Positions 18,117 to 23,706 of a DNA stretch of 64,000 nucleotides are shown here, piece by piece. The notes under the pieces were generated by a model. That model searched no databases. It was not told where the DNA came from and was given only the letters and a program-made list of their open reading frames with translations. The translations under genes and the position numbers were made by a program. Within the stretch, counting starts at the first letter, position 1, and every line of letters begins with the position of its first letter. Origin of the DNA: Podospora anserina (lineage: Eukaryota); the NCBI GenBank assembly GCA_017654855.1, contig CM030332.1, positions 1,054,001 through 1,118,000 of the forward strand, in the 5' to 3' direction.

Positions 18117-21100
18117 ATGGCGACTGCGGTTGCTGCCGCGGAGCTTAAGCAGCAGGGAGCTATCGAGGCTGCTCAGGATCCAGACAGCAAGGTCACCGCT
18201 GATGACGCCCAACAAAAGATTGTCGAGGAAAGTCGACGAGCTGGCGTGACGGCCTTCACATTCAACCCTGACGCCAGCCCGGAGGAGAAGAAGGCGCAAG
18301 CTCAAGCTGTACGTGTTATTCTTGGCAACGAGTGTATCCCCCCAAAGCTAACCACAAAGTTATACAACAGGCTATACCAGAAGGTTTCCACCGAAACCCA
18401 GGTGGTGTCGCCATCGCATCGGATCTTGATACTGATAGCAAGTCTGTCATCGACCTTCCCACACCGTCCAAGGCTGGCGCACTCGAGGTGGTCAAGGCCG
18501 AAAATGGCAAGGTCATTGTCGGTGGTCATGTTGAGGAGGACGAAGACAACTGGTGGGAGAAGACCGGTTGGGAACCCAGGTTTGGGTGGCCGGCTGAGTC
18601 GAGTCTCGAGGGTGAGAGCATGCTCGACCATCAGACATTACTAGAGACTCAGATTCCCGAGAAGTTCTTCGGAGGTATGGAACCCCCTTTACTGCCCTAT
18701 GCCGGGCCAAATTTGCTGACACTTGTGTGGTATAGACTGGTATCACAACGCCGCTGTCATTGCTTTTGCCTGCTTGTCCTCGTGGCTGGTGGCTGTTCTT
18801 GGTGGTGGTCTCGCCTGGGTATTCATCATTGGCGCAGCTTGCTCAACTTATTACCGCACCTCTCTGCGCCGCGTGCGCCGGAATTTCAGGGACGACATCA
18901 CTCGTGAACTTGCGCTCAAGAAGCTCGAAACCGATAACGAATCTGTCGAATGGATTAACTCTTTCTTGGTCAAGTTCTGGCCCATCTACCAGCCAGTCCT
19001 TGCGCAGACCGTTATCAGTTCTGTCGATCAAGTTCTCAGCAATGCGACCCCTGCCTTTTTGGACAGCTTGAAGCTCAAGACTTTTACCTTGGGTTCGAAG
19101 CCGCCGAGAATGGAACATGTGAAGACGTACCCCAAGGCCGAGGATGATATTATCATTATGGACTGGATGTTCAGCTTCACCCCCAACGATACCGCCGATA
19201 TGACTTCCCGCCAGCTCAAGAACAAGGTGAACCCCAAGGTTGTGCTTGAGATCAGAATCGGAAAGGCCATGGTCAGCAAGGGTTTGGATGTTATTGTCGA
19301 GGACATGGCTTTCAGCGGTTTGATGCGTCTCAAGATCAAGCTGCAGATCCCTTTTCCCCACGTCGAGAAGATTGAGATGTCTTTCCTGGAGAGGCCGACC
19401 ATCGATTACGTCTGCAAGCCTCTTGGTGGTGAGACGTTTGGTTTCGACATCAACTTCATTCCCGGTTTGGAGACCTTCATTATGGAGCAGATCCACGGCA
19501 CTCTCGCCCCGATGATGTATGCGCCCAATGTTTTCCCCATCGAAGTCGCCAAGATGCTCGCCGGTACTCCTGTCGATCAGGCCATCGGTGTTCTCGCTGT
19601 TACTCTTCACGGTGCTCAAGGCCTCAAGAACACCGACAAGTTTGCCGGTACCCCTGATCCCTATGTTCAGCTCTCTTTGAACAGGAGACAGGTGCTCGCC
19701 CAGACCAAGGTTATCAAGGAGAACGCCAGCCCCCGCTGGAACGAGACTCACTACATCATTATCACTTCTTTTAATGACTCGCTCGATTTTGACATCTTTG
19801 ATTTCAACGATTTCCGCAAGGACAAGAGGATTGCCCAGGTTTCTTTCCCTCTCGAGAACGTCGAGGAGGTTTGGGAGCACGAGAACGAAAGATTGGAACT
19901 CACCAACGATGGCAAGGCAAGAGGGGTTTTGTTTTCCGATATCCGGTTCTTCCCTGTCTTGGAGCCTAAGAAGCTCGAGGACGGTAGCCTGGAGCCGGCT
20001 CCCGAGTCTAACCAGGGTATCTTGCGCTTCACGGTTGAGCAGGCCAAGGAACTTGATGGTGGCAAGAGCATGATCGGCCAACTCAACCCCTACGCGACTC
20101 TCACATTGAATGGAAAGGCGGTCCACTCTACCAAGAAGCTGAAGCGCACCAACAACCCTGTTTGGGGCGAAAATGGCTCCAAGGAATTCCTCATCACCGA
20201 CAAAGCGCATGCCAAGCTTGGTGTTGTTATCAAGGATGACCGTGACATTGCCGGAGATCAGACTGTTGGAAACTACCAGATCAAGCTGGAAGACATGCTC
20301 GAACTGATGGCAAAGGGACAGGATTGGTACAATCTTGCTGGTACAAAGACTGGCCGTGTCAAGATGCAGGCTCAATGGAGGCCGGTGGCCATCTCGGGTA
20401 TTGCGACTGGCAGTGGCGGCTACGTAACACCCATTGGTGTTTTGCGCCTTCACTTCAAGCATGCCAGGAACCTTCGTAATGTCGAGGCTCTTGGCAAGTC
20501 TGACCCGTACGTGCGCGTCGTCATGTCGGGCATTGAGAAGGCCCGTACTGTCACGTTCAAGAACAACCTCAATCCCGACTTCGACGAGGTTCTCTACATC
20601 CCCGTACACTCGGCGAGAGAGCGCCTCCAGCTTGAGGTCATGGACTCTGAGAACGTGGGCAAAGACCGCAGCCTTGGTCTGACGGAGATCTCCTCCGGTG
20701 ACTACATGGTTCAGGGTGAGCTTGGCGAGTGGCTTGTTCACGACGAGAAGAAGGAGCACGAGGATGGCCTGCGTATCCACAACAAGGGCACACCCAAGGG
20801 CACCCTCACTTACACTGTCGCCTTCTATCCTACTCTCAACATTGCCGATCCCGAGGAAGAGGCCGAGAAGGAGAAGAAGAGGCTTGAGGAGGAAAAGGAA
20901 GCAGCAGATGAGGAGAAGGAAGAAGGAAAGGAATCCGATGCCTCGTCTGGCTTGGATGTTCCTCGCTCTACCGAGGCCGGCAAGTTCTCGGCTGACCTTA
21001 AGGAGCCAGCGACGCCTCTCACGCCCAAGACCCCCGGTACTCCCCTCTCGGCGACATTCTCCTCCCGGAGATCGCATGAGAACAGAGAGCCGCCCAAGGT

Positions 21101-22829
21101 CTACCTTACACCCCAGGAGCTGCTCAAGAAGGAGTCTGGTCTTATCATATTCAAGCTCATGGAGGCCGATTTGCCCAAGAGTCAGACCCGCATCGAGGTC
21201 TTTGTAGACGACATGGCCTTCCCTTCGTATACCTCTTCGGTTGCCAAGAAGTCAAAGACGACTTTTGACGAGATTGGCGACTGCTTCATTCGTGAACTGG
21301 AGTTCTCCAAGTTGACCATCAAGGTGTCGGAGAAGACGGACAGCAAGGAGGGCAAAAAGGAACGAGTCCTGGCCCGTCTTACCGGAAATACTCTTGATAC
21401 GCTCAAGCAATGCTTGGTAAGTGCTTTTGCTACAGTCAGTCGTGATTAGACTTTCAGCTAACAGCCTCAGAACAACCCAACGGTGCTCAAGCTGAAGGAT
21501 GATGATGGAAACGTGTATTCCATCCAGGTCAGCCTCAAGTATGTGCCAGTGCAGATGACACTCGACCCCAGCGAGAGCATCAATAACATGGGTAATCTCC
21601 GGGTCGATGTGTTGGACGCCCAGAACCTGCCATCTGCCGACTCGAACGGCAAGAGCGACCCTTATTGCAAGTTTGAGCTCAACGGCGTGGAAGTGTTCAA
21701 GACCAAGACGGTCAAGAAGACGCTCAATCCCGAGTGGAAGGAGTTCTTCACGATTCCAATCCCCTCGAGAACGGCGGCCAAGTTCAAGGCGACTGTTTGG
21801 GATTGGGATTTCGCTGACAAGCCTGACTTCCTCGGCGCTGCTGACATTAACCTTGAGCAGCTCGAGCCATTCAGGGGCCAGCAGTTCACTTACACTCTGG
21901 ACGGAAAGTCGGGCACCCTGCGGCTCCGTCTGCTCTTCACGCCAGACTACGTCACCAGGACAAGACAGGGCACTTCCACCCTCACTGGTACCTTCTCGGT
22001 GCCAGGCAGAATCGTTACTGGTGTGGCTGGCGTGCCTCTCAAGGGTGGTGCCGCTGTGGGCCATGGTGTTGCCAAGGGTGCCTCTTTCTTGAAGCGCGGG
22101 TTCCGCAGTGCTACGGGCAGAAGGGATGATGATGATGAAGAGTCTGTCAGCTCGGCCGACATTCCCATCATCACTACCAATGGCCCCGACTCAGGGCCCG
22201 GCGGCGGACTGAAGAGATCAGGCGGTCTTTCATTCCCCGAGGCTATCCCAGAGGCACCACCAAGCCCTCCTGGTGACAAGACTGCCGGGCTTGCCAACGG
22301 CGCGGGCGGTCTCACCCTTCATCACACAAGAACCAGGAGTGTGGGTGCCTCTTCGGTGCACAGTGCCATTTACCCTGGAGCGTCTTCTGGCACTGCCACC
22401 TTCAATGTCGTTTCCGCCACCGGCTTCCCTCCGTCGGCAGATGTATACGTCATCATCACGCAGACCAAGGACGGCAAGACCAAGCAGGTCGGCAAAACCA
22501 AGCATCGCAAGTCGTCTAGTGGCACGATCAAGTTCGATGAGACGTTCAAGATCCAGTGCACTCCAGACGCTCAGTTCAAGGTAGAGGCCAAGGAGCACCA
22601 CACCTTCGGTAGCGACGACCCGCTTGGCGAGACTCTCTACTTTGTGGATGAGACCAACTCTGGTCAGGAGAAGCAGCTGTCGATTGGTTCTGGGTCTGTC
22701 TGGATCAGGAGCTCATTCGTTCCGACTGAGGAGAAGGGTCTGCCAGACAGCCCCAAGTCTACGTCGGGGATCAGGAGGAGTTTTCTGAGCAAAAAGGACC
22801 TGAAGGTGCCGGGCTCTTCGGGGTCATGA
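18117..22829 (+). CDS. TCB: Tricalbin / extended synaptotagmin (TM hairpin, SMP domain, multiple C2 domains); ER-plasma membrane tether
   Basis: Exons 18117-18308, 18371-18674, 18736-21416 and 21471-22829; GT..AG introns with CTAAC/CTGAC branch sites. Hydrophobic hairpin after DWYHNAAVI, SMP start ESVEWINSFLVKFWPIYQP, and C2 motifs GTPDPYV, GKSDPYV and ADSNGKSDPYCKF..WDWDFADKPDFLG. Confidence 0.96.
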
Positions 22830-22907
22830 CTAGATGGCAGTCGCAGTGTTCGTCGCAAGTTTTCATGGGGAAGGAGTAAGAAGGACAAGGGCAAGGGCAA
22901 AGGGTAA
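22827..22907 (+). other. Putative stop-codon readthrough extension of tricalbin (UGA CUA G context; 25 codons to TAA 22905-22907)
   Basis: Sequence ...GGG TCA TGA CTA GAT GGC...AAA GGG TAA, translating as X-LDGSRSVRRKFSWGRSKKDKGKGKG*. Confidence 0.6.
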
Positions 22908-23706
22908 TTGATTAGGTTTTTTTTTTGGGGATGGAAATGGCATTCACATGGAGTCTGAGGCGAGAAGGGAGGAGGGTTGGGGTTAATAACTGGTAGTCCT
23001 GGATTGAGGGTTTATTTTTGTTTCTACTGTTTATTGTTTGTGTCATGGTCGTGGCAATGTTGCTATTAATTGCGTGATTGATGGTGGTAGTGGTGGTTTT
23101 TATGATACCTGTTTTTGCTACTGGTAGTTTTATCGGTGCTGTTGAAATGAAAAGTACTTTTATGAATATTGGAGGATATGTGATATTAAATAGATGGAGA
23201 CCTGCCCCCTTTTTCTTTTGTGATGTTCTGGAAGAATGTCTTGGCAGGGGTAGTTCTTTTTTTGCGCTGCCGGCCGGGGAATTAATGGGGTGAACCCGAC
23301 TAAGATTTGACAGGTGTTGAATTGGCCAATTCCGTTTCTTGGAGTGGGTGGGGTCTGTGCGTCAGTGGTTCAGGCAGGTCACGGAAGCTGGGGTGCGCGC
23401 GCCAGACATTCGTGGGGAACAATACAACTCGACAATTTGCTCTTGTTCACTCTTTTTTGTTTTTTCCTTTCGTCAATTTAGCGAACGACAAACTGTTCAG
23501 ATTGAAGTGACGAGTAGAACAAACAAACAAACAAACCAGCGATGTCTTGACACGACGACGAGGAACAAGATACCACTACGTACAAACTGTCCGCAGGCAG
23601 TAACGAAAGCAACGACCTGATCAAGAGCGAGCGAGACGAAGTCGGTATTAGTCGACACTACAACCACCACCGCGACGACGACGACCACGACAACGACGAC
23701 AATTCT

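Follow-up and report, generated by a model that had tools for sequence, protein, structure and literature searches.

Leaky-type stop codon context and a basic in-frame tail at the end of the Podospora anserina tricalbin gene

Does the stop codon of the Podospora anserina tricalbin gene let some ribosomes through, and if it does, is the short basic tail encoded behind it a selected part of the protein or a sequence that is merely tolerated? The locus lies in a stretch of 64,000 nucleotides (assembly GCA_017654855.1, contig CM030332.1, positions 1,054,001 to 1,118,000 of the forward strand), the whole of which is referred to here as the window; coordinates are those of the window unless a locus handle precedes them. 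The original prediction had proposed that readthrough yields a minority isoform with an additional, Ca2+-independent anchor to the plasma membrane. The reading that we favour, with a probability of roughly 0.55, is that nothing sets this tricalbin gene apart except a stop codon that fell by chance in a weak context, that minor readthrough probably takes place, and that the tail is a tolerated, lineage-specific by-product.

The gene in question is PODANS_1_2900. Its protein (P0002, 1511 aa, named tricalbin of P. anserina S) is 100% identical to the product encoded in the window, and tblastn aligned residues 1-64 with 18117-18308 and residues 166-1511 with 18735-22826, so that the gene extends from the start codon at 18117 to 22829 on the + strand. 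The precomputed Pfam entries of P0002 (PF24920, PF00168, which is C2, and PF25669) comprise SMP-type and C2 domains. The product combines an SMP-type domain and several C2 domains with a membrane anchor at the N-terminus and is orthologous to named tricalbins, which makes it a member of the tricalbin/extended-synaptotagmin family; a protein search with P0002 recovered 586 homologues at E <= 0.001 among 7999 candidates. The open reading frame (ORF) that contains the stop is the last exon of the gene, preceded by a 54-nt intron at 21416-21469 (+ strand, GT..AG), in which GTAAGT, GCTAAC and CAG are visible. A second deposited model of the same P. anserina gene (P0245, 1514 aa) differs from P0002 by three residues upstream and ends at the same TGA.

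The annotated stop codon is a TGA at 22827-22829 (+ strand), in agreement with the end of the protein models of close relatives. It is directly followed by CTAG (22830-22833), the bases around the stop reading ...GGG TCA TGA CTA GAT GGC..., and TGA CTAG at 22827-22833 is the UGA, CUA and G combination of functional readthrough genes. An in-frame extension of 25 codons, LDGSRSVRRKFSWGRSKKDKGKGKG, then occupies 22830-22904 and ends at a second in-frame stop, TAA, at 22905-22907, past which the sequence is T-rich, a run of T starting at 22917. Among the 25 residues of the tail are four arginines and six lysines, together with one phenylalanine and one tryptophan, and five of its codons are AAG. 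It ends in GKG, a tripeptide that does not resemble a type 1 peroxisomal targeting signal (PTS1). The original prediction had described the stop, its context, the open frame, the composition of the tail and the lack of a PTS1 in these terms, and on all of them it was accurate.

That this context is a known readthrough motif, as had also been claimed, agrees with the available text of two papers. Placed between two reporters in Ustilago maydis, UGA with CU(A) behind it was enough to give efficient readthrough, UAA and UAG being less effective than UGA and a G in the next position being noted as favourable; the short UGA CU(A)(G) motif also drives readthrough in animal genes (PMC4207609). Ribosome profiling in Neurospora crassa identified UGA-C as the leakiest four-base stop, with the top score for footprints past the stop (PMC12790415). 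Because of this published effect of the UGA CU(A)(G) context, low-level readthrough of the tricalbin TGA is likely. Efficient termination in vivo, with no meaningful amount of extended protein and with the motif and the open frame present by coincidence, is a rather improbable alternative. It would agree with the count of TGACTAG in the window, which is not enriched (one match over the two strands, where shuffles give an expectation of 5.06), with the unremarkable length of the open frame (see below) and with the RNA downstream of the stop, where no stimulatory structure was predicted, the fold being no better than that of shuffles (z +1.38). Against it stand the generality of the context effect in fungi and animals (PMC4207609) and the UGA-C effect seen by ribosome profiling in a related Sordariomycete (PMC12790415).

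Extended protein might also be made without any readthrough, were the tail reached by alternative splicing or by adenosine-to-inosine (A-to-I) editing of UGA to UGG during sexual development. RNA contigs from four public runs of four studies (X15, X16, X18 and X19) were aligned to 21300-23500. They were taken as spliced RNA because the 54-nt intron is absent from them, 21415 being joined to 21470 in all four runs. Each contig is unbroken from 21470 to its end at 23127 (X15), 23174 (X16), 23174 (X18) or 23176 (X19). The contigs of all four runs therefore cover the TGA and the tail in full, together with some 270 bases beyond, and the rest of the 3' untranslated region (3'UTR) can be placed at 22908-23176 (+ strand), although contig ends mark the poly(A) site only roughly. 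From 21470 to the contig ends, no splice joint and no changed letter was found in the four runs, whose contigs drop rare variants. Nor was there any consensus donor (GT[AG]NG[TC]) within 400 nt upstream that could be paired with an acceptor past the stop (0 candidates). The original prediction had named alternative splicing and cleavage of the mRNA before 22907 as events that would undo it; neither is supported by the contigs. The mature mRNA thus includes both the stop and the extension, and in these contigs, which can miss rare forms, neither splicing nor editing circumvents them. Alternative splicing to the tail was rejected as a candidate on the unbroken contigs and the lack of a donor.

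As for editing, the minimum-energy fold places the UGA in a small hairpin loop, and fungal A-to-I editing favours such loops; it also prefers a U at -1 (available text of PMC11156358). The base at -1 of the A of UGA is G, and no G appears at 22829 in the contigs; despite the predicted loop, the site thus departs from the pattern of fungal stop-loss editing. Because the base at -1 is G where editing prefers U (PMC11156358), editing of the UGA is unlikely. The fold that creates the loop is, as stated, no better than shuffles. Taking splicing and editing together, we regard a route of this kind to the tail as extremely unlikely, the growth stage behind the contigs being unstated. The contigs differ in length from the window at two places in or beside the T run behind the TAA, outside the extension: an extra T at 22916 (X16) and an extra G at 22926 (X15, X18 and X19), which reflects either strain variation or homopolymer error. 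In X15, a separate low-depth contig of 181 nt was seen at 23200-23380, just past the ends of the tricalbin mRNA contigs.

If the tail served the protein, both the context and the extension might be expected to recur in orthologues, and the original prediction had proposed to look for a conserved TGA CTA with a conserved basic extension. Protein ends were compared among the best 120 of the 586 homologues, and DNA ends among the best 80 of 199 relatives from one metagenome scan. Of these 80 loci, 77 reach the stop and three run off the contig; after collapsing, 61 distinct 3' ends remained, closed by TAG (26), TGA (19) or TAA (16). TGA CTA was present in one of the 61, a locus designated L001, and absent from the other 60, so that the loss of this context in orthologues, which the original prediction had named first among the outcomes that would refute it, is largely what was observed. 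The post-stop frames of the orthologues are mutually unrelated and often close within a few codons. Across these 61 ends, neither the context nor the in-frame extension is conserved with a substitution pattern of protein-coding sequence.

What is conserved is the protein before the stop. An RRSFL-type motif occurs in the last 60 residues of 118 of the 120 homologues listed, and their ends follow 4-24 residues later. Among the closest protein models, 11 of 11 (from the Podospora species complex, Triangularia, Cercophora samala and Apiosordaria backusii) end in ...VPGSSGS, the position of the stop being kept. No C-terminus resembling the tail was found among the 120 listed homologues, the best local score being 34, a value reached by 45 of 50 shuffled tails. 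Similarity of the tail to any of these C-termini was rejected, no score rising above the shuffled controls. The basic motif before the stop (22770-22826 in the window; C-termini of P0002-P0121) can be written G-[IL]-R-R-S-F-L-S-K-R followed by ...SR[ED]GTP[SNT]; it closes 118 of the 120 listed Pezizomycotina tricalbins and is R-R-x-S-like.

The tail itself does not have the appearance of coding sequence. It had been said to use codons typical of the gene, and this did not hold: its codon adaptation to the gene's own usage is 0.47, below that of every 25-codon window of the coding sequence (CDS; mean 0.756, standard deviation (sd) 0.076), while the mean for windows of the 3'UTR is 0.41 (sd 0.13), and the score of the tail is equalled or exceeded in 35% of these windows. 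Its first codon, CTA, has 0 occurrences among the 1350 codons counted in the CDS; AGT (three times), TCA, GGA, AAA and GGG, all minor codons of the gene, also occur in it, and GC content at third codon positions is 0.56 in the tail versus 0.68 in the CDS. The codon usage of the tail resembles that of the 3'UTR rather than that of the gene. The length of the open run is unremarkable: at the local base composition the chance of at least 25 open codons is about 0.16, and the post-stop frame stays open for at least 25 codons in 19 of the 57 orthologous loci that reach a second stop. The one unusual feature of the tail is its basicity, and this is a matter of composition only, arising because the stretch is purine-rich (0.68), a richness equalled or exceeded in 12 of the 61 orthologous post-stop stretches. 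The tail had also been said to echo the motif IRRSFLSKK before the stop. This reduces to one imperfect direct repeat of 13 nt (22787-22799 and 22874-22886, 85% identity, 87 nt apart), and two-copy matches as short as this often arise by chance. The two copies are in frame and encode SKKD before the stop and again in the tail. An origin of the tail by tandem duplication of the C-terminal motif was considered and rejected, this imperfect repeat being all that was found.

These results are consistent with the following course of events. At UGA CUA G, a small share of the ribosomes would accept a near-cognate tRNA and add one residue, and would then translate 25 more codons up to the UAA at 22905. 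The resulting minor form of tricalbin would end in a tail of 26 residues with a net charge of about +8; both the occurrence of readthrough and its frequency are inferred here. The tail would be a young sequence derived from the 3'UTR, specific to the lineage and without detectable selection at the protein level, and for this reason the extended protein is most likely a tolerated by-product and not a conserved regulatory isoform. A variant of this scheme, in which the extended protein is unstable and readthrough lowers tricalbin dosage, the tail being a degron rather than a membrane anchor, seems very unlikely to us. It has precedents in the long form of yeast PDE2, which is degraded (PMC3777964), and in the stop-loss form of edited Dbf2/DBF2 in Fusarium, which is unstable (PMC13123824; both as given in the available text), and a disordered, lysine-rich, non-conserved tail would suit a role that depends on composition; yet readthrough of a few per cent would barely alter dosage.

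A different answer is that readthrough is programmed and selected but confined to the Podosporaceae, the polybasic and aromatic tail binding acidic lipids of the plasma membrane independently of Ca2+. This narrows the model of the original prediction, and we consider it possible but doubtful; within it, phosphorylation at R-K-F-S might act as an off-switch for the tail. Several observations argue for it and weigh against a tolerated by-product, and the first of them concern L001, the closest metagenomic relative, with 81% protein identity and a C-terminus like those of Cladorrhinum and P. fimiseda. At L001:1411-1455 the stop is TGA CTA AAA, followed after a 13-codon basic tail (LKRKRGNKTTTKV) by TAG. 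The window and L001 share the TGA CTA as part of a 9-mer, TCATGACTA, that is identical in both, whereas the sequence on either side of it has diverged. Neutral sites of the two are saturated (dS, the synonymous divergence, is 1.25-1.46, and 77 of 189 four-fold sites are identical), and identity in the 3'UTR is 0.54 versus 0.51 for shuffles (sd 0.016). The leaky context has in this case been retained although neutral divergence is saturated; the chance of neutral retention of CTA would be about 0.41^3 = 0.07, or about 0.02 with the same stop codon, an estimate based on one comparison made post hoc. Both tails are basic, with K/R at 10/25 in P. anserina and 6/13 in L001, and the K+R fraction of the P. 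anserina tail (0.40) exceeds that of all 61 orthologous in-frame post-stop translations (maximum 0.36), making it the most basic of 62. Moreover, conservation within the Podosporaceae is barely covered by the comparison, since the 13 closest named relatives were seen as protein ends only, outside the DNA comparison: P. comata, P. pseudoanserina, P. bellae-mahoneyi, P. pseudopauciseta, P. pseudocomata, Triangularia verruculosa, T. setosa, Cercophora samala, Apiosordaria backusii, P. australis, P. fimiseda and Cladorrhinum PSN259 and PSN332.

Selected readthrough would also fit the presence of the tail in the mRNA and the topology of the protein, the C-terminus of tricalbin, which is anchored in the endoplasmic reticulum (ER), facing the plasma membrane. 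An engineered yeast Tcb3 in which the C2 domains were swapped for the polybasic patch of Ist2 is still found at the cortical ER (available text of bioRxiv 10.1101/2025.07.11.664157). Finally, tricalbins of Aureobasidium show a separate post-stop extension, described below, which changes in the manner of coding sequence and abounds in R-[RK]-x-S motifs. On the other side, the tails of P. anserina and L001 cannot be aligned (25 versus 13 codons), the codon usage of the former is 3'UTR-like, and the context is absent from 60 of the 61 orthologous ends. A/G-rich sequence yields K, R and G in any frame, and frame 2 of L001 is, by eye, lysine-rich as well. Retention of CTA in L001 is the only real hint of selection, and the tolerated by-product remains the reading that we prefer for P. 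anserina.

The Aureobasidium extension came to light among the orthologous loci as a side observation. In three of these (L059, L062 and L074), 87-94% identical to the tricalbins of Aureobasidium pullulans and A. melanogenum, the usual C-terminal motif is succeeded within a few codons by a conserved in-frame TAG, itself followed by AAA or AAG and by 85-86 open codons (L059:7348-7605, L062:3428-3688 and L074:4675-4935). Only the frame of the extension is open, the other two holding 2-8 stops. Between L059 and L062 the ratio of nonsynonymous to synonymous divergence (dN/dS) of the extension is 0.19, with 2, 4 and 12 differences at codon positions 1, 2 and 3 and one in-frame indel of 3 nt, and its dS of 0.21 equals that of the upstream coding region. 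Compared with L074, for which dS is above 2, it can still be aligned, with 43-46% protein identity. L074 is a contig of 5157 nt with a single ORF of 1500 codons, mRNA-like in this respect and a candidate only. No consensus intron spanning the TAG was found in these loci. The annotated Aureobasidium tricalbin proteins end at the TAG, leaving the extension unannotated, and no database protein matched it at E <= 0.01 in a region-restricted search of 141 candidates, 872-2778 aa in length. Like the P. anserina tail, it is rich in R-[RK]-x-S motifs, in this case in the form SLR[RK].S. It looks like a translated, unannotated sequence behind a stop codon and, judged by this signature of purifying selection, is a stronger recoding candidate, better supported than the P. 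anserina tail.

Post-stop coding sequence of this type may be more widespread among Dothideomycetes. In the partial model P0195 of Friedmanniomyces simplex, the last ~100 residues depart from the usual motif after RRDRS and continue with a sequence weakly similar to the Aureobasidium extension (SVSSLRRDSVDA versus SIGSLRRVSEDA); a short post-stop stretch in L076 had no similarity to P0195. One could go further and suppose that separate ascomycete lineages bypass a conserved stop of tricalbin to make minor isoforms with a longer C-terminus, Podosporaceae at UGA CUA and Aureobasidium at its conserved in-frame UAG, and that their R-[RK]-x-S tails would provide a phospho-switchable, Ca2+-independent grip on the plasma membrane that sets the strength of ER-plasma-membrane contacts. 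We consider this wider scheme unlikely.

What the locus means depends on which of these readings applies. A functional tail would make this a fungal readthrough extension carrying something other than a peroxisomal signal, and would represent a new means of tuning ER-plasma-membrane tethers. On present evidence it is one more leaky-looking stop, its chief use being as an inexpensive test case in P. anserina, an organism with classical genetics of translation accuracy and suppressors (available text of PMC3777964). A search of one literature collection found no paper in which tricalbin and readthrough occur together. The mechanism itself is well known, and tricalbin would at most be an added case of UGA CUA(G) with an unusual payload.

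Among known systems are the mammalian readthrough genes with UGA CUAG, namely AQP4, OPRK1, OPRL1 and MAPK10, and these cases are reported to have been found via the protein-coding conservation of their extensions. Such conservation is missing in P. anserina tricalbin, unlike in the mammalian genes. Four mammalian genes of this class are cited in the conclusions of PMC4207609, with a seven-base context identical to that of tricalbin. The same UGA CUA core is present in Tpi1, Rpe1 and Art1 of U. maydis and in human LDHB and MDH1, tricalbin having the favourable G in addition; in these genes (PMC4207609) as in tricalbin, a short in-frame extension leads to a second stop and RNA structure is unneeded. 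The extensions of the U. maydis and human genes end in a PTS1 and are found again in other species' orthologues (PMC4207609, as far as its available text describes them), whereas the tricalbin tail ends in GKG, has no known targeting signal and is absent from 60 of the 61 orthologous ends.

In position and composition, the tail fits the cortical sorting signal of Ist2, a PI(4,5)P2/PS-binding element that is likewise a cluster of K/R and aromatic residues, with serines inside, at the extreme C-terminus of an ER-anchored tether. The likeness is one of position and composition, and the tricalbin tail would be borne by only a small share of the molecules; moreover, tricalbins have C2 domains that already attach them to the plasma membrane. 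Polybasic plasma-membrane tails of this kind have a likeness to the effector domain of MARCKS.

Within the Sordariomycetes, stop-loss A-to-I editing likewise leads to proteins with an extended C-terminus, although its main targets are UAG and UAA preceded by a U at -1, while the tricalbin stop is a UGA with G at -1 and the contigs are unedited (available text of PMC11156358 and PMC13123824). In P. anserina itself, PaYIP3 provides a further comparison: its programmed -1 frameshift is a different mechanism, at a site which, unlike the tricalbin stop context, is conserved across Pezizomycotina, but its outcome, a minor long form of a membrane-traffic protein, is of the same kind as that proposed here for tricalbin (available text of PMC3777964).

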